Shown here: in pieces, positions 1-55,422 of the stretch | Position numbering within the stretch: the first letter of the stretch is position 1 | Layout of the letters: each line of letters opens with the position of its first letter | Source: Chiloscyllium plagiosum | Lineage: Eukaryota | Reading direction: 5' to 3' | Assembly: GCF_004010195.1 (NCBI RefSeq) | Contig: NC_057749.1 | Span: 14,663,429-14,727,428 of the forward strand | Length of the DNA stretch: 64,000 bases | The notes under the pieces: generated by a model | Told to the model about the DNA's origin: nothing | Database searches by the model: none | What the model saw: the letters and a program-made list of their open reading frames with translations, nothing else | Program-made: the position numbers and the translations under genes

Positions 1-130
1 CGCAGACACACACATGCACTCTTTCTCTCACACACAGACACACTCTCCCAATATCTCTCTCTCACTCACGCACACACACACCCACACACGCGCACACCTG
101 CACACGCACACGCACAGGCACATACACAGG
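1..130. repeat. Degenerate (CA)n/(CT)n microsatellite
   Basis: Interrupted cacaca/ctctct runs. Confidence 0.9.
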
Positions 131-148
131 TACAAATCTGTAGATCAA

Positions 149-1267
149 GGTCGCCTGGTGATATTATTGCCAGACTATTAATCCAAAAACTCAGGTCATG
201 TTCTAGGGACCTGGGTTTGAATCCTACCACTGCTGATGGTGGAATTTGAATTCAATTAAAACAAATCTGGAATTAAGAATCTGCTGATGACCATGAAACC
301 ATCGTCAATTGTTGGAAAAACCCATCTCGTTCACGAATGCCCTTCAGCAAAGGAAATCTGCTATTCTTACCTGGTCTGACCTACATATGACTCCAGACAC
401 ACAGCAATGTGGTTGACTCTCAATCACCCTCTACAATGGTCTAGCAAGCCACTCAGTTGTACCAATCACTACAAAGTCTCAAAGAAATGAAATTGGATCG
501 ATCATCTGACATCTACCTAGGCACTGGAAAAGACAACGGCAGAAACAGCCCTGTCACCCCTGCAAAATTCTCCTTATGAATATCTGGGGGCTAGTGCTAA
601 AATTGGGAGAGCTGTCTCACAGATCAATCAAGCAACAGCCTGACATAGTCATACCTTACAGACGACTCACCACATTAAACACAGCGGCTACAAGATCAGG
701 TCAGAGGCTGCAGTAAGTAACTCACCTCCTGACACCCCAAGGACTGTCCACCATTCACAAAGCACAAGCCAAGGATATGATGGAATTCTGCCCATTTGCC
801 TGAATGCAGGCCCAACAACACTCAAGAAGCTGACACCATCCAGGACAAAGCTTCCTGCTTGATTGGCATTGCATCCACAAGCATCCACTCCCTCCATCAC
901 CGATGCTCAGTAGCAGCAGTGTATACCATCTACAAGATGCACTGCAGAAATTCACCAAAGATCCTCAGCGAGCACCTTTCAACTCCACGACCACAAGGAC
1001 AAGGGCAGCAGATACATGGGAACACCACCATCTTCAAGTTCCCCTCCAAGCCGCTCGCCGTCCTGACTACCCGTTCCTTCACTGTCACTGGGTCAAAATC
1101 CTGGAATTCCGTCCCTAAGGGCATTGTGGGTCAACCAACAGCAGGTAGACCATAGTGGTTCAAGGAGACAGCTCACCCCCACCTTCTCAAGGGGCAACTA
1201 GGGGACTGGCATTAAATATTGGCCCAACCAGTGATGCCACATCCGACAAATGAGTAAACAAAAAAAA
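149..1267 (+). mobile_element. tRNA-headed CR1-group LINE, internally deleted copy (head, APE N-terminus, ORF2 C-terminus, tail)
   Basis: B-box-like GGTTTGAATCC at 214-224; APE start (NIWGLVLKLGELSHRSIKQQPDIVI) at ~579-653 jumps at ~665 to C-terminal ORF2 (DTIQDKASCLIG..HSLHHRCSVAAVYTIYKMHC); A-rich tail; colinear with the reverse copy at 43442-46477. Confidence 0.85.
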
Positions 1268-2527: not shown

Positions 2528-2611
2528 GAGTGATCATGATCCAAGGATGGAATCAAATTCCTCCAGGAACAGGGTTGGTGCTCAGGCCCCTGCTGACAAA
2601 CCTGAACCAAA

Positions 2612-3088
2612 GTCTTTTCAAAGTTATGAAGAAAGGCTGGATGGGCTGGGACTTTTTTCACTGGAGTGCAGGAGGTTGAGAGGTTTATAAAATCATGAGA
2701 TTGTATAGACAGGGTTAATGGTAGTTGTCTTTTCTCTAGGATGGAGGATTTCAAGACTAGGGGCACATTTTTAAGATTAGAGAGAAATTTAAAAAAGACA
2801 TGAGGGGCAATTGTTTTTTCACAGAGAGTGGTTTGAGTGTAGAATGAACTTCCTGAGGAAGTGGTGGATGTGGGTATAGTTCGAACGTTTAAAAGACACT
2901 TGGATAAGTACATGAATAGCTGAAAATGTGTTGCTGGAAAAGCGCAGCAGGTCAGGCAGCATCCAATAGGAAAGGTTTGGAGGGATATGGACCAGGAGCA
3001 GGCAGGTGGGACTAGTTTAGTGTGGGATTAAGGTCGGCATGGACTGGTTTGACCGAAGGGTCTGTTTCCATGCTGTATGACTCTATGA
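2612..3088 (+). mobile_element. HER1-type CR1 LINE 3' fragment
   Basis: SYEERLDGLGLFSLECRRLRG; tail GACCGAAGGGTCTGTTTCCATGCTGTATGACTCTATGAC. Confidence 0.9.
2920..2964. mobile_element. Penelope-derived family-1 arm remnant inserted in CR1
   Basis: CTGAAAATGTGTTGCTGGAAAAGCGCAGCAGGTCAGGCAGCATCC identical to the arms at 15835, 52106 and 55650; flanked by AATAG on both sides. Confidence 0.85.
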
Positions 3089-4119
3089 CCATCCTGGCTC
3101 CCATTATCAGGTCACAGGTTCTTTATCTCTTATCTGTTTTCTCTCTCTTTGTGGTTTTTACAAACTGTAGTGGTAAGCCTACATCTTTTTAATTGAAACA
3201 AAACCCAACTTCACGTCCCAATTGCTCCAGAGATGTGTAATAGTATTGCTGAACAAGCTGATCAGAAACTATGTAAGGTACATCTGTGTCACTGGGTATG
3301 GGATGAGAGGGTTAAGGCTAGGGAAGTCAAAAAACTCTTCACAGAAGAAAATATTGATTTCAATTTCTTTACTTGGCTTGAAACCAAAGGCAAATATGAA
3401 AGGAATGTTCAGTTGATGAGGCCGGTGCTAATGGAATGCGAATTATATTGTGCGATAACACATTGTTCAGTTAAGTAGTTAGAGCAGTTACAAGGACAGA
3501 CTGCTGGGAAGCTGAGGTTTTGGGAATTAGGAAGCAGACACAAGATGTGAACAAGCCCATTATGAAAAGAATAATCGTGTCTCCGTTCATATCGGTTTGT
3601 AATGGGTTGAAGGGATTCAGGGAACTTTACCTGAGCAGGACTTGCATGAAGAAAGAAAAAGGTTGGATATGAAATCTGTACAAAGCTATCCACCAAGTGT
3701 TATCCATCCTGTTTCTTGGGCTGTTCCAAATGCGTTCATGTTCTTTTTAATTATAGATGGCAAGAAATTAGTGGTGGTTTCTCTCCCTCCCATTTCCATC
3801 AGCTTTGTCAAATTAAAATATTCCTGTTCACGCTTTCTCATTGATGTTAATATCTGGCTGAATTCCAGTGATTCCATCAACAGCTTGTATTGCACAGTTA
3901 ATGATCTTCATGGTCCATGCAAAGTGCTCTCATTGTTTGGTTTTCTGTAATTGTGTCCTTGTTCCTTGTCTGTCACTTTAACCTACCAGGAAATTAGCAC
4001 AAAGGCACCTTATTTAGTTATCTGGTGGTGAATTTTCACTCACTTGTTTCTCGATCTAAAAATTCATAGATGCTCCACACCCTCGCCATTGTTTAAATCA
4101 AGATCCATCACCCCATGTT

Positions 4120-4446
4120 CCTCTGATAGTACTATTATTGCTGCACTGTTAATCCAGAGACCCAGATAATGTTCTGGGTTCGAATCCTGCCATGGCAGAT
4201 GGTGGAATTTGAAATCAATAAAATATCTGGAATTAAGAGTCTAATGATGACCATGGACCTAGTGTTGAATATTGACAAAACTGGTTCACTAATGTTTTTC
4301 AGGGAAGAAAACTGCCATCCTTACCTGGTCTGTCCTACAGATACCTCCAGACCCACATGTGGTTGCCTCTTAACTGCCCTCTGGGCAATTAGGGATGGGT
4401 AATAAATATTGGCCTGATCAGAGATGCCCTCAGTGAATGAATGAAC
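4120..4446 (+). mobile_element. Short SINE derivative of the tRNA-headed LINE (head joined to tail)
   Basis: GGTTCGAATCC B box, shared body, junction GCCCTCTG|GGCAATTAGGGATGGG, GAATGAATGAA end. Confidence 0.85.
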
Positions 4447-4448
4447 AA

Positions 4449-4722
4449 GTACAGTGGCTCAGTGGTTAGCACTACTGCCTCACAGCACCAGGGTCCCAGG
4501 TTCGATTCCAGCCTCAGGTGACTGTCTGGGTGGAGCTTGCACATTCACCCCGTGTCTGCGTGGGTTTCCTTTGGATGCTCCGGTTTCCTCCCTCAGTCCA
4601 AAGATGTGCAGGTCAGGTGAATTGGCCATGCTAAATTGTCCATTGTGCTAGAGGGGTTACTCTTCAGAGGGTAGGTGAGGACTTGTTGGGCCGAAGGGCC
4701 TGTTTCCACGCTGTAGAGAATC
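4449..4722 (+). mobile_element. HE1 SINE
   Basis: Head, V-domain and GGGCCGAAGGGCCTGTTTCCAC tail. Confidence 0.92.
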
Positions 4723-14159: not shown

Positions 14160-14520
14160 CAGGTGACAAACTGCAAGGCCAAAGCAACCCCACTTGATTG
14201 GCACCACATGCACATTGACTCCCTTCACCACTGACCACAGTGTGTACCATCTACAAGATGCACTGCACTCGGACAGCATCTTCCAAACCCATGACCACTT
14301 CCATCTAGAAGGACGAGGGCAGCAGATCCATTGGGATACCATTAGCAGTGAGTTCCCCTCCATGCCACTCACCGTCCTGATTCGGAAAAATATCACCATT
14401 CCTTCACTGTCGCTGGGTCAAAATCCTGGAACTTGCTGCCTATCGGCGTTAACCCACAGCAGGTGGACTGGAGCGATTGAAGAAGGCAGCTCACCACCAC
14501 CTTCTCAAGGGGCAACTATT
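14160..14520 (+). mobile_element. 3' fragment of the tRNA-headed LINE family
   Basis: GTGTACCATCTACAAGATGCACTGC...CACCACCTTCTCAAGGGGCAACTA. Confidence 0.85.
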
Positions 14521-15510: not shown

Positions 15511-15534
15511 GGTCTTCACTAAACTTTTTTTTCA

Positions 15535-16103
15535 CCTTTATTCAGTCACAGGATGAGGGATTCACTGAGCAGGCAGCATTTATTCCCCATCTCTAATTGA
15601 CCAGAGGGCAGTTGAGTAAACCACATCGCTGTGGGTCTGGAGTCACATGTAGGCCAGACCAGGTCGTGAAGGACATTAGTGAACCAGATGGATTTTCCCA
15701 ACAATCAACAACGGATTTATGGTCATCATTAGACTCCTAATTCCAGATTTTTTATTGAATTCAAATTCCACCATATGCTGTGGGGGATTCGAACCCAGGT
15801 CCCCAGAACATTACCTGGATCTCTGGGTTGACAGAGCTGAAAATGTGTTGCTGGAAAAGCGCAGCAGGTCAGGCAGCATCCAAGGAACAGGAGAATCGAT
15901 GTTTCGGGCATAAGCCCTTCTTCAGGATTCCTGAAGAAGGGCTTATGCCTGAAACATCGATTCTCCTGTTCCTTGGATGCTGCCTGACCTGCTGTGCTTT
16001 TCCAGCAACACATTTTCAGCTCTGGTCTCCAGCATCAGCAGCCCTCACTTCCTCCTCTCTGGGTTGACAGTCCAATGATAATAGCACTAAGCCACCGCCT
16101 CCC
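15535..16103 (-). mobile_element. SINE derivative of the tRNA-headed LINE, interrupted by a Penelope palindrome
   Basis: Minus strand starts GGGAGGCGGTGGCTTAGTGC (A box) and has GGTTCGAATCC (B box); head-tail junction near 15600. Confidence 0.85.
15835..16055. mobile_element. Penelope-derived family-1 fold-back element with a 15-bp TSD
   Basis: ~93-bp inverted arms centred near 15928, 34-nt tail at 16022-16055; TSD TCTCTGGGTTGACAG at 15820-15834 and 16056-16070. Confidence 0.9.
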
Positions 16104-17974: not shown

Positions 17975-18320
17975 ACCAGTGAACCTGATGGGCATTTCCC
18001 CCAACAAGCGACAACAGATTTATGATCATCATACGACTATTCATTCCAGATTTGATTGAATTCCAGGTGAGGCAGGATTTAAACCCTGGTCCATGAGAAC
18101 ATTCCCCAGCTCTCTAGGGTTAATGTTAATGTCACAAGGTCATCACCTCCCCTTGGAGATGGTTAATAATTGAAACGATGAAAAATGAAATGTATAACAG
18201 ACACACAGCGATGTGGTTGACTCCTAACTGCTCTCTGAAATGGCCTGACAAGGGCCACTGAGGGGTAATTAGGGATGGACAATAAATGCTGGCTTTGCCA
18301 GTGGAGACCACATGAGAGAA
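17975..18320. mobile_element. Two opposed fragments of the tRNA-headed SINE family
   Basis: Minus-strand head part at 17975-18150; plus-strand tail part CACAGCGATGTGGTTGACTC..AATTAGGGATGGACAATAAATGCTGG at 18200-18320. Confidence 0.7.
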
Positions 18321-33428: not shown

Positions 33429-35672
33429 TAGAGTCAGAGAGTTAGAGAGATGCACATCACAGAAACAGATCCTTCGGTCCAACCCGTCCATGCCGACCAG
33501 ATATCCCAACCCAATCTAGTCCCACCTGCCAGCACCCGGCTCATATCCCTCTAAACCCCTCCTATTCATATACCCATCCTGATGCCTTTTAAATGTTGCA
33601 ATTGTACCAGCCTCCACCACTTCCTCTGGCAGCTCATTCCATGTGTGAAAAAGTTGCCCCGTAGGTCTTTTTTATATAATTCCCCTCTCACTATAAACCC
33701 ATGCCCTCTAGTTCTGGACTCCCCCACCCCAGGGAAAAGACTTTGTCTATTTATCCTATCCATGCCCCTCATGATTTTATAAACCCCTCTAAGGTCATCC
33801 CTCAGCCTCCGACATGCCAGGGAAAACAGCCCCAGCCTGTTCAGCCTCTCCCTGTAGCTCAAATCCTCCAATCCTGGCAACATCCTTATAAATCTTTTCT
33901 GAACCCTTTCAAGTTTCACAACATCTTTCCCATAGGAAGGAAACCAGAATTGCATGGAATATTCCAAAAATTACCAAATCAATGTCCTGTACAGCTGCAA
34001 CATGAGCTCCTAACTCCTGTACTCAATACCCTTACCAATAAAGGAAAGCATACCAAACGCCTTCCTCACTATCTTGTCTACCCACGACTCCACTTTCAAG
34101 GAGCTATGAATCTGCACTCCAAGGTCTCTTTGTTCAGCAAATCTCCCTAGGACCTTACCGTTAGGTGTACAACTCCTGCTAGGATTTGCTTTCCCAAATG
34201 CAGCACCTCGTATTTATCTAAATTAAACTCCATCTGCCACTTCTCAGCCCATTGGCCCATCTGATCAAGATCCTGTTGTAATCTGAGGTAACCCTCTTCG
34301 CTGTCCACCTCCAATTTTGGTGTCATCTCCAAACTTACTAACTGTACCTATTATACTCGCAACCAAATCATTTATGTAAATGACAAAAAGTAGTGGACCC
34401 AGCACCGATCCTTGTGGCAGTCCTTGCCTTTCCAAATACATGTACATCCTGTCCGTCAGGACTCCCTCCAAAAACTTACCCACCACTGACATCAGGCTCA
34501 TCGGTCTATAGTTCCCTGGCTTGTCCTTACCCCCTTTCTTAAATAGTAGCATCACATTAGCCAATCTCCAGACTTCTGGCACCTCATCTGTGACTATTGA
34601 TGATACAAATATCTCAGTAAGAGGCCCAGCAATCACTTCCCTAGCTTCCCACAGAGTTCTCGGGTACACCTGGTCAGTTCCTGAGGATTAATCAAATTTT
34701 ATGCATTTCAAGACATCTAGAACTTCCTTCTCTGTAATATGGACATTTTTAAAGATGTTACCATCTATTTCCCTACATTCTATATCTTCCATGTCCTTCT
34801 CCACAGTAAGCACTGATGCAAAATACTCATTTAGTATCTCCCCCATCTCCTGCAGCTCCACACAAAGGCCGCTTGCTGATCTTTGAGGGGCCTTATTCAC
34901 TTCCTAGTTATCTTTTTGTCCTTAATGTATTTGTAAAAACCCTTTGGATTCTCCATAACTCTATTTGCCAAATCTATCATTTCCCCTTTTTGCCCTCCTG
35001 ATTTCCCTCTTAAGTGTACTCCTACTTCCTTTATACTCTTCTACCTGACATACGCTTTCTTCTTTTTCTTAAGCAAACCCTCAATTTCTTTAGTCATCCA
35101 ACATTCCCTATACCTACCAGCCTTCCCTTCCACTCTAACTGGAATATACTGTCTCTGGACTCTCGTTATCTCATTTCTGAAGGCTTCCCATTTTCCAGCC
35201 TGCGAACATCTGTCCCCAGTTAGCTTTTGAAAGTTCATGCCCAATACTGTCAAAATTAGCTTTGCTCCAATTTAGAATGCCAACTTTTAGATCCGGTCTA
35301 CCCTTTTCCACCACTACTTTAAAACTAATAAAACTATGATTGCTGGCCCGAAAATGCTCCCCCACTGACACCTCAGTCACCTGCCCTGCCTTATTTCCCA
35401 AGAGTAGGTCAAGTTTTGCATCTTCTCTTGTAGGTACATCCATATAATGAATCAGAAAATTTTCTTGTACACACTTAACAAATTCCTCTCCATCTAAACC
35501 CTTAACACTATGGCAATCCCAGTTTATGTTTGGAAAGTTAAAATCCCCTACCATAACCATCCTATTATTCTTACAGGTAACTGAGATCTCCTTACAAATT
35601 TATTTTTTAATTTCCCTCTGACTATTAGGGGGTCTATAATCCAATCCCAATAGGGTGAGCATCCCTTTCTTA
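33429..35672 (-). mobile_element. HER1-type CR1 LINE, ~2.2 kb with APE and RT remnants and internal deletions
   Basis: VMVGDFNFPNINW..LDLLLGN (APE); WRLANV..FKKG..GNYRP; PQGSVLGPLLFVIYIND..FGDD (RT); KLERVQKRF; tail. Confidence 0.95.
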
Positions 35673-37359: not shown

Positions 37360-37505
37360 GTCAGCCATCCTTACCCAGTCTGGCCTACATGTGACTCCAG
37401 ACCCACAGCAATGTGGTTGACTCTCAACTGCCCTCTGGGCAATTAGGGATGGGCAATAAATGCTGGCCTAGTCAGGGATGACCTCACACCATAAATGAAT
37501 TAAAA
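37360..37505 (+). mobile_element. 3' half of the tRNA-headed SINE derivative
   Basis: GACTCCAGACCCACAGCAATGTGG..CCCTCTG|GGCAATTAGGGATGGGCAATAAATG. Confidence 0.85.
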
Positions 37506-41877: not shown

Positions 41878-42231
41878 GAACAAAGAACAAAGAACAAAGA
41901 AACTTTACAGCCCAGGAACAGGCCCTTCGGCCCTCCAAGTCTGAGCATCACCTCACATTTGCCTGAATTGAACTCCATCTGCCACTTCTCTGCCCAACTC
42001 TCCAGTCTATCTATATTCTCCTACAGTCCCCTATGCTTTCTGCTATTCCACCAATCTTAATGTCATCTGCAAACTTGCTGATCATACCAACAGTGCTCTC
42101 TTCCATATCATTTATGTATAAAACAAATAATAGTGGCCGCAGCACTGATCTTTGTGGAACACCACTGATCACCTTTCTCCATTTTGAGAAACTCCTTTCA
42201 ACTACTACTCTCTGTCTCCTGTTGCTCAACC
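41878..42231 (-). mobile_element. CR1 fragment (RT core joined to a (GAACAAA)n tail)
   Basis: RRQRVVVERSFSKWRKVISGVPQRSVLRPLLFVLYIND..FADD. Confidence 0.9.
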
Positions 42232-43441: not shown

Positions 43442-46400
43442 TTTTTTTATTCATTTGTGGGATGTGGGAGTCACCGGCTAGGCCAGCATTTATTGCCCAT
43501 CCCTAGTTGCCCCTTGAGAAGGTGACAGTGAGCTGCCTTCTTGAACTGCTGCAATCAGTGTGCTGCAGGTAGACTCACAATGCCCTTAGGGAGGGAATTC
43601 CAGGATTTTGACCCAGCGACAGTGAAGGAACAGTGACCTATTTCCAAGTCAGGATGGTGAGTGGCTTGGGAGGGGAACTTGTAGGTGGTGGTGTTCCCGT
43701 GTACCTACTGTCTTGTTGTTCCAGATGGAAGTGGTCATGGGTTTGGAAGGTGCAGGATCTTTGGTGAATTTCTGCAGTACATCGTGTAGTTAGTTCACAC
43801 TGCTGAGACTGAGCATCGGTGGTGGAGTGATTGGATGCTTGTGGATGTGACGCCAATCAAACGGGCTGCTTTGTCCTGGATGATGTCAAGCTTCTTGAGT
43901 GTTGTTGGAGCTGCACCCATCCATGGTAAGTAGGCAGTATTCCATCACACCCCTGACTTGTGCCTTGTAGATGGTGGACAGGCTTTATGGAGTCAGGAGA
44001 TGAGTTACTCACTGCCTCTGACCTGCTCTTGTAGCTACTGTGTTTATGTGATGAGTTCAGTTGAGTTTCTGGTCAATGGTAACCCCCAGGATGTTGATAA
44101 TGGGGGATTTAGTGATGTTATTACCATTGAATATCAAGAAGCAGTGGTTAGATTGCCTCTTATTAGTGTTGGTGCATTTGAACTGGGACTGCCTCAGTAT
44201 CTGAATAGTCACAAATGGTCCTGAACAATGTGCAATTGTTGGTGAGCATTCCCACTTCTGACACTACCCTGAGGAAGTCCTGCAGAGATGTCCTGGACCT
44301 GAGATGAGTGACCTCCAATAACAATGACCATTTTCCTATGTGTCAGGTATGACTCTACCCTGCAGAGAGTTTGCCCCCTGATACTCATTGATTATTCAGT
44401 TTTGCTCGGGCTCCTTGATGCCACATTCGGTTGAATGTCAAAAGGTTGTCACTCTTACCTCCCTCTGGAATTCAGCCCTTCTGTCCATGTTTGAACCAAA
44501 GTTGTAATGAGGTCAGGAGCTGAGTGGGCGTCATTGAGCAGGTTGTTGCTGAGCAGGTGCTGCTTGATAGCGCTGCTGATGACACCTTCCATCACTTTAC
44601 TGATGTTGGAGAGGAGGCTGATGGGGCAGTAATTGTCCAAGATGTACAGGATGTGCCTGGACAAATTTACACATTGTTGGATGGATGCCGTATTGTAACA
44701 ATTCTGGAAGAGCTCGGCTAGGGGAGCAACAGGTTCTGGAGCACAAGTCTTCAGTACTAGTGCCGGAATGTTGTCAGGGCCCATAGCTTTTGCAGTATCC
44801 AGTGCCTTCAACCATTTCTTGATATCACGTGGAGTGAATCGAATTGGCTGAAGACAGGTATCTGTGATGCTGGGGACCACTGGAGGTGGCCGAGATGGCC
44901 AGCCACTCGGCACTTTAACCTGAGGATTACTGCAAAAGCTTCAGCCTTATCTTTCGCACTGATGTGCTGGGCTCTTCCATCATTGAGCTTGGGGATATTT
45001 GTGGAGCCTCCTCCTCCAGTGAGTTGTTTAATTGTCCACCATCATTCACAACTGGATGTGGCAGGACTGCAGAGTTTAAATCTGATCCATTGCTCATGGG
45101 AATCACTTAGCCCTGTCTATCACTTGCTGTTACGCTGTTTGGCATGCAGGTAGTCCTCTTTGGTGGTGTCGCCATGTTGACACCTCATTTTCAGGTATAC
45201 CTGGTGCTGCTCCTGCCATGCCCTCCCGCACTCTCCGTTGTACCTGGGTTGATCCTCTGGCTGGATAGTAATGGTTGAGGGGATATGCTGGGCCATGAGG
45301 TTACAGATTGCGCTGGAGTTCAGTTCTGCTGCTGTTGATGGTCCACAGTGCCTCATGGATGCTCAGTCTTGAATTACTAGATCTGTTCGAAGTCTGTGCC
45401 ATTTAGCGTGGTGATAATGTCACACAACACAATGGAGGTTAGTGGCAAAGTGAAGGCGGGACTTTGTCTCTACGAGAACAGTGTGGTGGACACTCTTACC
45501 AATACTGTCATGGACAGATACATCTGCAGTTGGCAGATTGATAAGGATGAGATCAAGTATGTTTTTCCCTCTTGTTGGTTCCCTCACCACCTGCCACAGT
45601 CCGAGTCTAGGAGCTATCTCCTTTAGGAACTGACCAGCTTGATCAGTAGTACTGCTGCCAAGCCAATCTTGGTGATGGACATTGAAATCCCCTGCCCTGA
45701 GTACATATTGTGCCCTTGTCATCCTCAGTGGTTCCTCCAAGTGTTGTTCAACATGGAGGAATATCGATTCATCAGACGATGGATGATGGTTGATAGTAAT
45801 CAGCACGAGACTTCATGGGGTCTGGAGCCAATGTTGAGGACTCCCAGAGCAACTCTGTCCCGACCATGTACCACTGTGCTGCCACCTCTGCTGGGCCTGT
45901 CCTGCTGTGAGACAGGACATATCCAGGGATGGTGATGGTGGTGTCTGGGATATTGTCTGTAAGGTATGATTCCATGAGTATGACTATGTCAGGCTGTTGC
46001 TTGACTCGTCCGGGAGACAGCTCTCCCAGTTTTGGCATTAGCCTCCAGATGTTGGTAAGGAGGACTTTACAGAGTCGAAGGGCTGTTTTTACCGTTGTCT
46101 TTTCCCGTGCCTAGGTCGATGCCAGATGAATCCATCCAGTTTCATTCCTTTGAGACTTTGTAGTGATTGGTACAACTGAGTGGCTTGCTAGGCCATTTCA
46201 GGGGGCGATTGAGAGTCAACCACATTTCTGTGGATCTGGAGTCACATGTAGGTTAGACTGGATGAAGATGGCAGTTTCCTTCCCTGAAGGGCATTAGTGA
46301 ACCAGATGGGGTTTTCTCACAATCAGCAAAGGTTTCATGGTCATCTGTAGATTCTTAATTCCAAGTATTTTCGGATAAATCTACCATCTGCTGTTGACCT

Positions 46401-46477
46401 GAACCCAAGTCGGCAGAACATTAGCTGAGTTTCTAGATTAATAGTTAAGTGATAATAGGTCAATAGGCCATTGCCCC
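43442..46477 (-). mobile_element. Near full-length tRNA-headed CR1-group LINE (degenerate APE+RT, no ORF1)
   Basis: Head at 46477-46380; APE (KQQPDIVILMES, AGDFNVHH, ILDLIL); KAMGPDNIP..NYCPISLLSNISKVME; SAGLPQGSV near 44270; tail GGGCAACTAGGGATGGGCAATAAATGCTGGCC..AATAAAAAAA. Confidence 0.9.
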
Positions 46478-46698
46478 TCATGGTCCTCTGTAAACTATAG
46501 CAAGCAGAAAGCTGAAAGTCAGCCCCTTTCTGTTAACAACAGAGTGATTTCCCTTGTAGAATATAGTGAGCAGAGGTATTTATTTATTTATTTAAAGTAA
46601 TTGTCCATTGCCTGTTGCCAGAGGTCTCCAGTGTGACTAATGGGGAATTAGTCAATCATCTCAAGCCATCTGGGATGGTGGTGTCCTTTTATTTAATG

Positions 46699-49556: not shown

Positions 49557-49611
49557 AATCTCTAATCGAGTTACTAGGTTATGAGCCCAATGATGCTGGG
49601 AATTGATAGAG

Positions 49612-50430
49612 CAGAGCTGGGCTGAGAGGTGGCAAATGGAGTTTAATGCGGACAAGTGTGAGGTGATTCACTATGGTCGGAGTAACCAGAATGCAAAGTA
49701 CTCGGCTAATTCTTGGTAGTGTAGATGAGCAGAGAGATCTCGATGTCCAGGTACACAGATCTTTGAAAGTTGCCACCCAGGTTGACAAGGTTGTTAAGAA
49801 GGCATACAGTGTTTTAGCTTTTATTAATATAGAGATTGAGTTCCGGAACCATGAGATTATGCTGCAGCTGCACAAAATTCTGGTGCGGCCGCACTTGGAG
49901 TATTGTGTACAGTTCTGGTCACCGCATTATAAGAAGGATGTGGAAGCTTTGGAAAGGGTGCAGAGGAGATTTACTAGGATGTTGCCTGGTATAGAGGGAA
50001 GGTCTTACGAGGACAGGCTGAGGGGCTTGAGGCTGTTTTCATTAGAGAGAAGAAGATCGAGAGGTGACTTAATAGAGACATATAAGATAATCAGAGGGTT
50101 AGATAGGGTGGACTGGGAGAGCCTTTTTTCAAGTATGGGGACAGCGAGCACGAGGAGGCATAGCTTTAAATTGAGGGGTGATAGATATAGGACAGATGTC
50201 AGAGGTAGTTTCTTTCCTCAGAGAGTAGTAAGGGTATGGAATGCTTTGCCCGCAACGGTAGAAGATTCGCCAACTTTAAGTACATTTAAGTCATCATTGG
50301 ACAAGCATATGGACATACATGGAATAGTGTAGGTTAGATGGGCTTCAGATTGATTTGACAGGTCGGCGCAACATTGAGGGCCGAAGGGCCTGTACTGCGC
50401 TGTAATGTTCGATGTTCTATGTTCTATGTT
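49612..50430 (+). mobile_element. Young 5'-truncated CR1 LINE with a long open ORF2 C-terminus
   Basis: ORF 49673-50332: LVRPHLEYCVQFWSPHYKKDVEALERVQRRFTRMLPG..QRVVRVWNALP; (ATGTTCT)n tail. Confidence 0.95.
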
Positions 50431-50829: not shown

Positions 50830-51390
50830 TTTTTTTATTCACTCATGGCATGAGGGCATCACTGGCTGGGCCAGCATTCATTACCCATCCCTAATCGCCA
50901 GCAAATAGTTCACAGTCAACCATATTGCTGTGGGTCTGGAGTCACGTGGAGATGAGGACCACAGATTTATTTCCCTAAAGGACATTATTGAACCAGATGT
51001 GATTTTCCCTTGACAATTAACAATGGACAATGGTTTTATGGTCATCATTAGCCGGTAAAATGTAGAGCTGGAGAAAGCACAGCAGGGCATGCAGTATCAA
51101 AAGATGTTTCAGGCAGGACCCTTCATCAGGACTCATGGTCATCATTACACTCTTAACTCCAGAATTTTTTTAAGGGGATGAGGAGAGAACTTTAAGATTG
51201 AGATGATACCAGAACAGGAATGGTTTTATGGTCATCATTAGCCGGTAAAATGTGGAGCTGGAGAAAGCACAGCAGGGCAAGCAGTATCAAAAGATGTTTC
51301 AGGCAGGACCCTTCATCAGGACTCATGGTCATCATTACACTCTTAACTCCAGAATTTTTTAAATTGAATTCAAGTCACTGTCCACCATCC
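50830..51390 (-). mobile_element. tRNA-headed SINE derivative with a Penelope insert and a ~144-bp duplication
   Basis: CCAGCATTCATTACCCATCCCTAAT tail; insert flanked by ATGGTCATCATTA; 51029-51173 duplicated at 51219-51362. Confidence 0.8.
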
Positions 51391-52772: not shown

Positions 52773-53809
52773 GTAAGTGTTGCTAGGGTGAGGGCTGACA
52801 TCCAGAACCAAGATGTAACCGATATTTGAGTGAGGCTATGTGGGACTTATACCAGGAAGCACTTCCTCACACAAAGATAAGTGGTGGCCTGGAGCTCCCT
52901 CTCCCAAAGTTCTGTGCATTTCAATCAATTAATTAATAGTGATTCAATTCTAGGGTTGATCAATTTGCATTGGGTATGTAGGGGCTTGCAATTGATGGGT
53001 AAATGGAATTGCACATCAGACATGATCTTGGTGACATTATAATCAAGGACTTCTCACAGAGAAGAATGAATACTGGGAAGCAGCTGTGTTTATATAGCAC
53101 CTTTAATCCATACGTCCACACAACCTAGACGCAGGAATGTCCTGCTCCTGTCCTTGAACTTCCTCTGCCATTTGATGAGATTGAGGCTGATCCAACTGTA
53201 GTCTCAACTCTACTTTCCTGCCCCAGTAACCTTTGGCTCCCTTGTCAACCAACAATTTCTCTAACTCAGCCTGAAAAAGATTTTGTGACTCTGTCTCCAC
53301 ATCCCAAGTCACTCCACTGTAACGTTAGCAAAAGAAGTTGGACCCTGACCTACATAAGCAGATTTTTAACACCGATGAACAAAGACTTGGTACATTTTGA
53401 GGAGTGTCTTAACAAAGTAAAAGAGGGGATGGAGGAAGGGAATTCTAAAACTTCGGGTCCAAACAGACTGAAGGCAGACTGGGAGGATATGGGCCAGAGC
53501 TGAGGAATGCATGGATTCTGATGGGTTGTAGGGCTGGAGGGCATTATAATCTAGCAGTGTCTGGCAGGAATGCCCAAGCCAAACGGAAGTGGGAACTCAT
53601 AATGGGTACGTGTTAATGAAGAGTTAATTGAATGAGAATTTGTTTGGTGCCTATACAAAGGGAAAAGTGCTTTTAGTGTTTTGTGGTGTGTGGAAAAATA
53701 TATGCCTGAACTCTGTCTGTCTAACCAATTCTTAATCTCTAACGTTCAATGGAGGACATTATAGAAGATAAACCCAGTAATATCTATAGTGGCTGATGGT
53801 GCTGTTTCT

Positions 53810-54485
53810 CATTCACCTGTGGAATGTGGGTGTCTCTGGCTGGGCCAGCATTTATTGCCCATCCTTAGTTGCTCCTTGAGAAGGTGGTGGTGAGCTGCAT
53901 TCTTGAACAACTGCAGTCCACCTGCTGTAGGTTGACCCACAATGCTCTTAGGGAGGGAATTCCAGGATTTTGACTCAGCGACACTGAAGAAATGGTAATA
54001 TATTTCAAAGTCAGGATGGTGAGTGGTTTGGAGGGGAACTTGAAGGGGTTGGTGTTCCCATGTATCTGCTGCCCTTGTCCTTCTAGATGGAAGTGGTCGT
54101 GGGTTTAGAAGATGCTATTTCTGGATTTTTTGCAAATAAATGTAGTGCATCTTGTAGATTATACACGCTGTTGCTACTGAGTGTCAATGGTGGAGGGAGT
54201 GAATGTTTGTAGATGTGGTGCCAATCAAGCGGGCTGCTTAGTCCTGGATGGTGTCAAGCTCTTGAGCGTTGTTGGAACTACACCCTTTCAGGCAAGTGGG
54301 CCATATTCCATCACACTCCTGACTTGTGCCTTGTAAATGATGCACAGGTTCTGGGGATTCAGGAGCTGAATTTTTTGTAGCAGTATTCCTAGTCTCTGAT
54401 CTGCTTTTGCAGCCATTGTGTTTATGTGGTGAGACCAGTTGAGTTTCTGGTCAATGGTAACCCCCTGGATGTTAATATTAGGCAA
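53810..54485 (-). mobile_element. 3' fragment of the tRNA-headed LINE family
   Basis: GVTIDQKLNWSHHINTMA..IYKAQVRSVMEY; tail CCAGCATTTATTGCCCATCC. Confidence 0.9.
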
Positions 54486-55422
54486 TTCAGCTAGTTTGAA
54501 CTGGGTAATCTACTCATGTGGAAGTAAAATTCCTCCTGGTGTACATGAGGTTGAGTCTGACTGCAAAAGAGTCCCATACGCCAAAGGATTTAACATATAT
54601 GTGCATCCATTCACTGAACTACAGCACGGTTAATGTCCTGCAGATAATTAGTATACTGTACAGTTGAATGTTATAAATAAGCTGTGCGATTTACATGGTA
54701 TATATAGAGATACTGGGAGTGATTACGAGGCAGTAATGTCACTGTGAGATCTTGGTGATGCTATAAATCATTGAATGATTTATAACAGTGTTCGGGACTA
54801 AGTTTAAATTACTACCTTAAAGTAATTTCAGTCTATCTGTTAACTTTTACAATATGCCACCTTTTGATTTTAGAATGATTTTGTTGCATTGCTGTCAGTT
54901 TCTGAAGCTTTGATCAGAGAACTTAATATTGTAGATGTGTTGAAGTGTCATCCCTGCTCTCTTCTGCTTAATGATTCTCCTCAGCAGCCTCCCACACTCA
55001 GAAGCTGCAGTTCATGCAAACCCTCCTCTTCAACCAAACTACTTCTCACTACCCACTCCCCATCTCTGCTGGCCTCATTCACCTCCACTAGTTTGTACCC
55101 TTCAATAGATTCAATTCAAAATCTTATCTAAAAAAATCACTTATCTACCATCGCCATCCAGTCCGCCACCAATGTCCCTGTGGCTTCACCCAGTTTACAT
55201 TTGCAAAGTCCTCCAGCCCAATGTGTTCACTGGACTCCCCCTTAACTTTGGCATTGTTTGTGTCTCAACCCCTCTACCCCTCTACCTTAACTTTGATTGT
55301 TTCCAGTCTCTAGACCCTGACACTTGAACTTTGCTCACTCTGTCCAGTCATCAAATACTTCCTGCAGTCACCTTCTCAAATTCCAGGATCTTTGTGTCTG
55401 TGCAGAAAAGCATCATCTGTAA

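Follow-up and report, generated by a model that had tools for sequence, protein, structure and literature searches.

In the textbook account, a SINE originates by fusion of a small-RNA head to a tail stolen from a LINE, and LINEs carry a Pol II promoter of their own. On the minus strand of positions 43442-46475 of a 64,000-nt stretch of Chiloscyllium plagiosum DNA (the window, as we call the whole stretch that was analyzed), a tRNA-like head stands in front of a near full-length, decayed LINE copy. Does this head belong to the LINE, and if so, what does it imply for the transcription of the element and for the origin of the SINEs that surround it?

The locus holds a defunct copy of an ancient LINE of very high copy number, whose single ORF encodes an endonuclease and a reverse transcriptase (RT); the copy is 85-88% identical to the family majority. 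The endonuclease and RT motifs quoted in the original prediction were all found on the minus strand, with VKQQPDIVILMESYL in the open stretch 46110-45772, RAGDFNVHHQDW and ILDLILIN in 45812-45420, AMGPDNIPALVLK and NYCPISLLS in 44940-44455, and GLPQGSV in 44391-44209. Pfam assigned 45812-45420 to Exo_endo_phos_2 (E 5e-9, 36.5 bits for a cut-off of 27.4). The RT pieces of the window copy, in which two deletions have removed majority positions 2315-2367 and 2462-2533, matched no Pfam family, and RVT_1 was recognized in two other family copies (E 8.7e-13 and 1.8e-24). At 43442 the copy terminates in ...gaataaaaaaa. Being coding and 3.0-3.3 kb long, the element is not the short, non-coding unit expected of a SINE, and 5' truncation in its family is typical of a LINE, with 22 of 29 loci collected through the RT cut within the coding part and sharing a 3' end. 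Target-site duplications were not detected: flanking words of at least 7 nt were shared in only 4 of 14 elements, without a consistent pattern. A protein search returned relatives at 22-29% identity, none of them a named LINE, and a protein atlas returned nothing more specific than "reverse transcriptase". The features of the locus and the other family copies within the window are listed in the table.

Table. Features of the LINE copy and of related copies within the 64,000-nt window
Feature	Positions	Strand	Remarks
tRNA-like head, heavily decayed	46378..46479	-	sequence read; family 5' boundary from alignments
A-rich linker remnant	46364..46377	-	splits head from rest of 5'UTR; majority AATAAA plus A run
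5'UTR body common to SINE	46199..46363	-	SINE copies depart after ...CCCTCTG, majority position 286
LINE-only 5'UTR	46146..46198	-	first ~25 nt retained by second SINE type
Sole conserved ATG upstream of endonuclease	46143..46145	-	out of endonuclease-RT frame
Apurinic-type endonuclease domain	45430..46071	-	Exo_endo_phos_2, E 5e-9; frame broken by decay
RT region, decayed	43900..44790	-	motifs; RVT_1 on family copies, none on window pieces
3' tail common to LINE and SINE	43442..43514	-	ends in AATAAA plus A run
Internally deleted sister copy	153..1262	+	head, 5'UTR and endonuclease start joined to last ~630 nt
SINE copy with head, body and tail	4127..4450	+	intact B box 4177-4187
LINE 3' fragment	14176..14518	+	family match
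SINE copy split by nested palindromic insert (~220 bp)	15530..16103	-	A box 16094-16085, B box 15795-15785
Second SINE type, fragment	18198..18303	+	~25 more nt of LINE 5'UTR ahead of tail
5'-truncated SINE copy	37361..37505	+	direct view of body-to-tail junction
5'-truncated SINE copy	50830..51051	-	family match
5'-truncated LINE copy	53805..54490	-	last ~690 nt

The original prediction held that the head, followed after ~410 nt by the endonuclease motifs, is a property of the family and not a chance juxtaposition, and the other copies bear this out. A query running from the head to the endonuclease gave 11,410 first-look candidates, of which 40 were scored; the 39 matches other than the query itself each had E<=1.5e-108, and 18 of them began no more than 12 nt from the start of the query. 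A further 20 copies were picked solely by an intact endonuclease start. Ten of these extend to one and the same 5' end at the head, nine break off at scattered positions of the body, and one has no upstream match; neither an ORF1 nor any other common 5' region was seen among the 20. Seven of the 29 RT-anchored loci extend past the endonuclease, and all seven are colinear with the body. The junction between head and endonuclease is constant among the copies examined, the layout is fixed across the family, and longer copies in which the tRNA-like segment is nested downstream of an ORF1 were not seen among them. A variable junction and such a nested head had been named beforehand as refuting the prediction, and neither turned up. 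All of these samples were selected for their similarity to decayed copies of the window, and they are small relative to the tens of thousands of copies in the family. Chance insertion of a SINE beside a 5'-truncated LINE might be entertained for a window so dense in SINE copies, but it is refuted by the recurrence of the same colinear layout at dozens of loci that are unrelated to one another, as are their flanks, and we attach practically no probability to it.

Two further candidates were rejected. Thirteen of the 39 matches start ~100-136 nt into the query, as a headless subfamily would, yet most of them hold a diverged or partial head in the alignment; the local alignments broke because the head of the window copy is itself decayed. 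None of the 20 endonuclease-anchored copies starts at ~100-136 nt, and the head is absent in 3 of the 29 aligned loci (L004, L021, and L030). Comparison of flank with flank for an alternative common upstream sequence turned up interspersed repeats of other kinds, whose distance and orientation varied.

The head also opens an abundant co-resident SINE of ~355 nt, in which it is followed by the first ~170 nt of the 5'UTR of the LINE and then by the ~70 nt with which the LINE ends. The SINE body thus matches the 5' region of the LINE and its ~70-nt tail the 3' end, as in the three-part structure of the Bov-tA type; a tail common to a LINE and its partner SINE is also a feature of the CR1/L2 group. 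All 10 full-length endonuclease-anchored copies bear the head, so that the partner LINE, unlike that of the Bov-tA type, is not headless. The tail may resemble those of mammalian L2 and MIR, and the SINE body may be faintly similar to part of the Deu domain. Sequence words from the tail or the body were not found in print in the literature searched. Two SINE break points were observed, as were four longer, head-bearing deletion forms with differing break points. A second, independent copy of the fusion had been predicted at 149-665; the same head-to-endonuclease layout is indeed present at 153-654, which corresponds to majority 8-507, but it is joined to 664-1262, corresponding to majority 2650-3281, and the copy is therefore an internally deleted derivative. 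A propagating deleted family of intermediate size was considered and rejected, since the four longer forms have different 3' break points.

Twelve diagnostic columns, located in both head and body, separate the LINE-linked from the SINE 5' regions. At least four of six LINE body states are present in 32 of 36 LINE-linked copies and at least four of six SINE states in 20 of 20 SINE copies, and at position 44, in the head, 83% of the LINE copies but 5% of the SINE copies have an A. SINE-like head states combined with LINE states in the body occur in 9 of the 36 LINE-linked copies, which makes recombination between the two lineages possible. The LINE and SINE majorities differ by a K2P distance of 0.063 over 267 sites. 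Divergence from their own majority is greater for LINE 5' regions (K2P 0.158, n=35) than for SINEs (0.103, n=20); the sampled LINE copies are thus older, and the SINE is more readily understood as an offspring of the headed LINE than as the donor of its head. Acquisition of a SINE promoter by the LINE, as originally predicted, is one possible direction, and the ages favor the opposite one.

The same data bear on another scenario, in which the master LINE was headless and RT repeatedly left a LINE RNA template for a SINE RNA inside the common 5'UTR, generating look-alike junctions. The common body would conceal the switch points, the nine mixed copies are what switching would leave, and template switching is a standard account of SINE chimeras in the accessible part of Nishihara 2016. 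This scenario is nevertheless improbable: a headless terminus is missing from all 20 endonuclease-anchored copies, LINE-specific bases extend into the head, as position 44 illustrates, and in our samples the LINE copies predate the SINE copies. These results show that the head belongs to the retrotransposed unit and is inherited within the LINE lineage. The SINE looks like an internal-deletion derivative of the headed LINE.

The family has no ORF1, nor the space for one. From the 5' end, ~340 nt lead to the first conserved ATG, and this leader region encodes merely a short frame of ~35 codons that overlaps the main one. The ATG is retained in 20 of 25 copies, at a modal distance of 149 nt from the QPDIV anchor, which a 6-nt indel changes to 155 nt in one subfamily, and it is out of the endonuclease-RT frame in 21 of 25; that frame has no in-frame ATG upstream. 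The prediction of an ORF1-less LINE therefore stands as to the absence of ORF1, but its portrayal of this absence as abnormal was overstated. An ORF1 upstream of the endonuclease-RT ORF is present in CR1 and many L2 elements, and single-ORF L2-type LINEs are known from fish, e.g., UnaL2 and ZfL2-2.

A test for one continuous endonuclease-RT ORF had also been proposed, and in a crude majority of 57 copies a single open frame of 676 codons spans the endonuclease and, in the same frame, the RT. No intact copy was found among 150 places scored, where the longest real open frames have 534 and 484 codons; an apparent frame of 1660 codons proved to be a stretch of masked N. Long headed copies could accordingly be viewed as non-autonomous passengers, in effect very long SINEs, moved in trans by an autonomous LINE with the same tail. 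The endonuclease without an in-frame ATG ahead of it, the failure to find an intact copy, and the one frameshift and one stop in the last third of the crude majority would all suit such passengers. Against them speak the survival of a 676-codon open frame in a majority of 57 decayed copies, the 6-nt subfamily indel, which preserves the frames, and the absence of a headless relative from the RT- and endonuclease-anchored samples. We judge passenger status to be very unlikely.

What, then, is the head? The common 5' end of the family reads GGGRAGGCRA and is followed by the A box, SINE copies opening identically; the start lies 10-13 nt upstream of the A box, and a leader of 5-7 nt precedes the tRNA-like part. 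In the window copy, the 5' leader is followed by remnants of the A box (46470-46460) and the B box (46405-46395). Both boxes are perfect in the family majority. The majority sequence built from 27 LINE-linked copies and the one built from 20 SINE copies contain TGGCCTAGTGG and GGTTC(G/A)AATCC, with starts 63 nt apart, and that of the LINE carries TGGCCTAGTGG and GGTTCAAATCC. This tRNA-like spacing is a property of the majorities, single copies being mostly degraded, and B boxes that fit the consensus pattern remain in 10 of 36 LINE and 11 of 20 SINE copies. At the CpG site of the B box, the 36 LINE heads show CA (16), TG (11), and CG (3), a pattern that points to ancestral GGTTCGAATCC. This same sequence occurs in the window at 4177-4187 (+) and 15785-15795 (-), two matches for 0.01 expected, and TGGCTTAGTG occurs at 16085-16094 (-), one match for 0.13 expected, which is not significant alone. 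These motifs had been cited as better-preserved boxes of sister copies; they are where they were said to be, but all three lie in SINE copies and none in a LINE copy.

A tRNA origin of the head is only weakly measurable. Among 40 real C. plagiosum tRNAs, the head aligned best to an 82-nt tRNA with a long arm (score 32, where shuffles have their 95th percentile at 27; P 0.013). Of 20 SINE heads searched with the Rfam tRNA model, two gave matches, one at 27.2 bits (E 0.025) and the other at 22.3 bits, and none reached the gathering score of 29 bits. Nothing in the window attained Rfam gathering scores, and no tRNA was found at E<=10 in 45900-46600, at E<=0.1 in 20 family loci, or at E<=10 in 10 LINE-linked heads. 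ARAGORN detected no tRNA across the window or in 29 family loci, and it accepted the majority head at a very lax setting alone, with the reverse strand scoring equally.

To our knowledge, all LINEs investigated to date have Pol II as their polymerase, and the natural products of Pol III fall far short of 3.3 kb. Internal T4 runs, which would act as Pol III terminators, number zero in the 3,281-nt majority, in which TTT occurs 5 times versus 53 for AAA, 45 for CCC, and 39 for GGG. The absence of T4 is not significant relative to dinucleotide-preserving shuffles (mean 1.7, P(0)=0.15), and at one site such a run is present in 36% of 45 copies. In pooled copies, runs of at least four T occur at 0.71/kb versus 3.94/kb in 11 other LINE-like coding stretches from elsewhere in the genome, a density 5.5 times lower. 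A T4-free majority is compatible with Pol III read-through, of which it is no proof.

The long form may instead have been made by Pol II, the LINE head being a relic or a structured 5'UTR and the Pol III promoter acting in the short derivatives alone. Such an arrangement, to which we give close to an even chance, would agree with the dependence of all the LINEs characterized to date, as we know them, on Pol II and a translatable message, with the AATAAA at which the family terminates, with a T-run avoidance that is not significant given the scarcity of TT dinucleotides, and with the 10 LINE heads devoid of a tRNA signal. It accounts less well for the identical 5' ends of LINE and SINE with their 5-7 nt leader ahead of the tRNA-like part, for ancestral boxes that are intact in the LINE lineage, and for the 5.5-fold lower density of T runs. 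In the human L1 system, according to the accessible part of Kroutter et al. 2009, retrotransposition of Pol III transcripts proceeds without the ORF1 protein, and an ORF1-less, Pol III-headed LINE is therefore mechanistically conceivable. We infer that the head served as an internal promoter; that Pol III also made the long template RNA is a possibility that we place somewhat below even odds.

Our working model for the family is as follows. The ~3.3-kb unit opens with a ~105-nt head, which is endowed with A and B boxes and would derive from a tRNA with a long variable arm (serine-like); after it come an A-rich linker, ~220 nt more of 5'UTR, an ORF reaching almost to the 3' end, and a ~70-nt tail. 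As an internal promoter, the head would have set the start site 10-13 nt upstream of the A box, and with the start site upstream of it the head would have been copied with each new insertion. The SINE would have been derived from the headed LINE via internal deletion. Short forms would be transcribed by Pol III, the protein would be supplied by a few copies transcribed as capped messages, and the LINE protein would recognize all of these RNAs through their common tail. Leaving the choice of polymerase aside, we consider the headed LINE architecture, with the SINE as its deletion derivative, to be probable. A bolder version, which we regard as rather doubtful, is that of an autonomous LINE that used a tRNA-type Pol III promoter to produce a T-run-free RNA of 3.3 kb, dispensed with ORF1, and gave birth to its SINE by successive deletions. 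If this were true, the SINE would be the offspring of the LINE rather than a tail-stealing parasite, and the lack of an in-frame start would point to cap-independent, non-AUG translation or for protein supplied in trans.

A LINE that shares a tRNA-like head and a start site with its SINE blurs the division between the two classes, and internal deletion would offer a one-step route from LINE to SINE. It also raises the question of whether an autonomous retrotransposon can obtain its template RNA from Pol III. We found no description of a head-bearing or Pol III-driven autonomous LINE in a search of the accessible, largely non-subscription literature; should the family and its head already be present in Repbase or Dfam, their value here would be that of a well-documented example.

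SINEs made of a tRNA head plus 5' and 3' parts of a LINE, e.g., Bov-tA from Bov-B and others derived from RTE and Vingi elements, are described in the accessible portion of Kojima 2018 (PMC5786205). The shark SINE has the same constitution of tRNA-like head, LINE 5'UTR piece, and LINE 3' tail, and its family additionally includes head-bearing internal-deletion forms of intermediate length. In the Bov-tA type as described there, the autonomous LINE is headless and the head is considered to have been added to an already deleted LINE, whereas the full-length shark LINE is headed. That portion of the review mentions SINE-body 5' regions from RTE and Vingi alone, and deleted two-part LINEs from RTE, Ingi, Vingi, and R2 alone. 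By its look (APE plus RT, tail ...GAATGAATAAA), the shark family seems unlike RTE and Vingi, and it would extend the idea of SINE bodies from LINE 5'UTRs past the clades of Kojima 2018 (PMC5786205).

Several pairs that share tails have been described from cartilaginous fish, namely, HE1/HER1, SacSINE1 and CmiSINE with L2-2_CM, and SINE2-1_CM/CR1-2_CM (Ohshima 2013; Luchetti 2017; Venkatesh 2007, each in its accessible part). Like them, the present pair combines a very abundant tRNA-derived SINE with a very abundant, putatively CR1/L2-type LINE that has the same 3' end. Compared by description, these pairs are characterized in those parts by tail homology alone, with no common 5' end or LINE head. 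Closer to the 5' end, Ingi-3_AC and R4-1_ADi have SINE-like stretches in the LINE 5'UTR, for which LINE-SINE recombination was proposed (Kojima 2018, PMC5786205, in the portion accessible). They have in common with the shark family a LINE 5'UTR sequence that also occurs in SINEs. In Ingi-3_AC and R4-1_ADi, as described in that portion, this sequence comprises a short piece of a conserved body domain in an internal position, whereas in the shark LINE it is a tRNA-derived head at the extreme 5' end.

In ribozyme-bearing LINEs, a structured RNA at the 5' end travels with the element and sets the start of the RNA, which would be uncapped yet must yield protein. Such self-cleaving ribozymes are located at the 5' ends of R2, RTE, and L1Tc (cited in the accessible portion of Kojima 2018, PMC5786205). 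The shark head likewise is a structured 5'-end RNA element travelling with a LINE, but the device is tRNA-like rather than a ribozyme, and its leader of 5-7 nt is retained. Since this leader is kept before the tRNA-like part, a transcription start fits the shark family better than a processing cut.

The ~105-nt tRNA-like head, with its A and B boxes, belongs to the copied unit of this LINE, whose start site is fixed and common to the LINE and to an abundant ~355-nt SINE, and which has no ORF1. When the 3.56-Gb genome, which contains the window, was searched with a query running from the head through the endonuclease start, 11,410 first-look candidates came up; 39 of the 40 that were scored are other loci, each at E≤1.5e-108, and in 18 of these 39 no more than 12 nt separate the start of the match from that of the query. 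Since this query itself spans the junction and the sample is therefore biased, a second sample was anchored on the endonuclease alone, comprising 20 copies with an intact endonuclease start, compared over ~625 nt upstream of each. Ten of them reach a single common 5' end at the head, nine end at scattered points in the 5'UTR, the pattern that 5' truncation of LINE insertions would give, and one lacks an upstream match; the unmatched flanks have no sequence in common other than dispersed repeats. Among 29 loci anchored on the RT, 22 are truncated within the coding part and the seven that extend further are all colinear with the same 5'UTR to the limit of the fetched DNA. Neither ORF1 nor a different 5' region was found in any copy of these samples. 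The original prediction was of an ORF1-less LINE that had gained a tRNA/SINE promoter. Its head-to-endonuclease layout is a family property, and a variable junction and longer copies with an upstream ORF1 were both looked for and not found in the samples; the observation is confirmed, and its interpretation is supported in part. L2-type fish LINEs can be without ORF1.

Features of the window and their correspondence to the 3,281-nt majority sequence of the family
Feature	Window position (strand)	Majority position	Remark
LINE copy	46475-43442 (-)		
Block 1 of LINE copy		1-2314	84.9% identity
Block 2 of LINE copy		2368-2461	
Block 3 of LINE copy		2534-3281	87.6% identity
Conserved ATG and short frame	46200-46035 (-)	285-445	
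Internally deleted head-bearing copy	153-1262		one of the four longer deletion forms
CA-rich microsatellite-like tract	1-140		adjoins the deleted copy on its upstream side
SINE	16103-15530		interrupted by nested insert
Palindromic (hairpin) repeat, ~220 bp	15834-16052 (minus strand reading)		nested in SINE head
SINE	4127-4450		
Start of different tRNA-like repeat (..cagtggctcagtggttagcac..)	~4455-4480 (+)		just 3' of the SINE; probably another SINE family of the C. plagiosum genome
Endonuclease-/RT-like coding stretch	33761-35659 (-)		other LINE family
Endonuclease-/RT-like coding stretch	41936-42229 (-)		other LINE family
Endonuclease-/RT-like coding stretch	49600-50311 (+)		other LINE family

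The window LINE is a near full-length family copy carrying two small deletions, since it aligns in three colinear blocks to the majority sequence of 57 other family copies. Every protein motif first quoted for it is found there; its endonuclease matches Exo_endo_phos_2 (E 5e-9, above the Pfam cut-off), its RT pieces have no Pfam match, and RVT_1 is matched by two longer open frames taken from other family copies. None of the 150 places scored is an intact copy, the longest true open frames among them being 534 and 484 codons, and the crude majority sequence holds a 676-codon open frame uniting endonuclease and RT. With the 3' part re-aligned from 23 copies, this frame can be followed as far as the 3' end, interrupted by a single frameshift and a single stop; coverage of this part is low. 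Short stretches 38-70% identical to the family RT occur in gene models of other sharks (P0004, P0005 and P0012, named storkhead-box protein 1-like, anoctamin-7-like and ROS-like kinase in their source), and such identity inside named gene models suggests repeat fragments annotated as exons and relatives of the family in other shark lineages.

The main frame opens past a stop at majority 285-287 and contains no in-frame ATG ahead of the endonuclease. The only conserved ATG, at majority 340, is retained in 20 of 25 copies. It precedes the QPDIV anchor by 149 nt (10 copies), 148 nt (6) or 147 nt (3), and by 155 nt in a subfamily marked by a 6-nt indel; these distances put it out of frame in 21 of the 25 copies. 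From this ATG runs a frame of ~35 codons, ending in a stop that overlaps the first part of the endonuclease frame; the arrangement may be left over from overlapping ORF1 and ORF2, or may point to unconventional translation. The 6-nt insertion of the subfamily (L027, L043, L044 and L045) lies at majority ~395, between the conserved ATG and the endonuclease, and leaves the arrangement intact; the window LINE has some of the neighbouring bases in common with this subfamily and lacks the insertion itself.

Full-length LINE copies and SINE copies start alike, GGGRAGGCRA leading into the A box. In the majority sequence of 27 LINE-linked heads, TGGCCTAGTGG is followed 63 nt downstream by GGTTCAAATCC. 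At the B-box CpG, 36 LINE heads show CA (16), TG (11) and CG (3), a signature of decayed CG from which the ancestral B box would have been GGTTCGAATCC. The well-preserved B boxes near 4177 and 15785 and the A box near 16090, all cited in the original prediction, are real and are located in SINE copies. The hairpin repeat nested in one SINE head has a ~14-nt direct duplication (ctgtcaacccagag) at its borders and looks like a MITE-type element; the same hairpin occurs at L021:3290-3383 and in the flanks of L022 and L073, and its Rfam matches to microRNA precursors are weak and sub-threshold (mir-680, 35 bits; threshold 104).

Evidence that the head may derive from a tRNA is real but weak. ARAGORN accepts the majority head only at halved thresholds, at which the reverse strand scores as well; neither ARAGORN nor Rfam calls a tRNA in the window LINE head, which is too decayed. 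The Rfam tRNA model matched two of 20 SINE copies (27.2 bits, E 0.025, and 22.3 bits; gathering score 29) and, at E≤10, none of ten LINE-linked heads. In the two alignments the anticodon and T arms can be seen, along with a 21-nt variable insert and an acceptor stem that pairs in part. When the SINE head was aligned locally to 40 genuine tRNAs from the C. plagiosum genome, an 82-nt tRNA with a long variable arm came out best, scoring 32 against a shuffle 95th percentile of 27 (P 0.013). By the Rfam alignment, a leader of 5-7 nt precedes the tRNA-like part in the retrotransposed unit, which is easier to reconcile with a transcription start than with a processing cut.

In SINE copies the head is followed by the 5'UTR as far as ...CCCTCTG (majority 286), where the sequence passes directly to the final ~70 nt of the LINE; a second SINE type retains ~25 nt more LINE sequence before the jump. 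Counted genome-wide with at most two mismatches, the SINE junction word occurs 16,616 times and the LINE-type continuation word, second SINE type included, 5,440 times, the reversed control being 0 for both. Four longer head-bearing forms with differing internal deletions were present among 29 head-anchored loci, and in structure the SINE and these intermediate forms are deletion derivatives. Twelve alignment columns, split evenly between the head and the body (the 5'UTR part common to both), separate LINE-linked from SINE 5' regions. At least four of the six body columns have LINE states in 32 of 36 LINE-linked copies, and at least four of six have SINE states in all 20 SINE copies; nine of the 36 LINE-linked copies are SINE-like at three or four of the head columns and could be an older LINE subfamily or recombination products. 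In these small samples, picked by likeness to the window copies, K2P divergence from the own majority is greater for LINE 5' regions (0.158, n=35) than for SINE copies (0.103, n=20), and the LINE and SINE majorities differ by 0.063. Taken together, and within the limits of these small samples, the junctions, deletion forms, diagnostic columns and K2P values favour a head inherited within the LINE lineage, the SINE having probably descended from a headed LINE, and speak against a headless LINE that repeatedly had SINE heads grafted onto it.

The head would have served as the internal promoter of the element. A check for internal Pol III terminators found no T4 run in the majority sequence, a result compatible with Pol III, and five TTT against 53 AAA, 45 CCC and 39 GGG; mononucleotide shuffles predict 4.5 T4 runs (P(0)=0.0115) and dinucleotide-preserving shuffles 1.7 (P(0)=0.15). 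On the sense strand of pooled copies (100,384 nt), T4+ runs occur at 0.71 per kb versus 4.9 per kb for A, with a single shared T4+ site, in 36% of 45 copies. The depletion is stronger than in other LINE fragments of the genome, given 3.94 T4+ per kb in 11 other LINE-like coding stretches from the same loci and the window (9,144 nt, 26% T); the whole window has 5.73. It is partly due to low T content and is not proof of Pol III transcription. Pol III may have transcribed the long RNA that served as template, with Pol II-transcribed copies providing protein that worked via the shared tail, a scheme that we propose tentatively and place somewhat below an even chance; that the long form was instead made by Pol II comes close to even. 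For human L1, Kroutter et al. (2009) report retrotransposition of Pol III transcripts in the absence of ORF1 protein and a requirement for this protein when Alu is driven by Pol II, which by analogy would fit an ORF1-less headed LINE.

The weight of the finding hinges on prior cataloguing of the family, which is possible, and on the polymerase behind the long form. Within a literature scope lying outside Repbase, Dfam and most subscription journals, no account of an autonomous LINE bearing such a head came to light, and no text matched words of the family sequence. For cartilaginous-fish LINE/SINE pairs, the parts of Venkatesh 2007, Ohshima 2013 (table), Luchetti 2017, Nishihara 2016 and Mulley 2009 considered here describe tails alone as shared. 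SINEs made of a tRNA head and of LINE 5' and 3' parts, and also two-part deleted LINEs, are described in the sections of Kojima 2018 (PMC5786205) used here, where the head-bearing three-part SINEs are confined to RTE and Vingi, the two-part deleted LINEs to RTE, Ingi, Vingi and R2, and the head is assumed to join a LINE already deleted.
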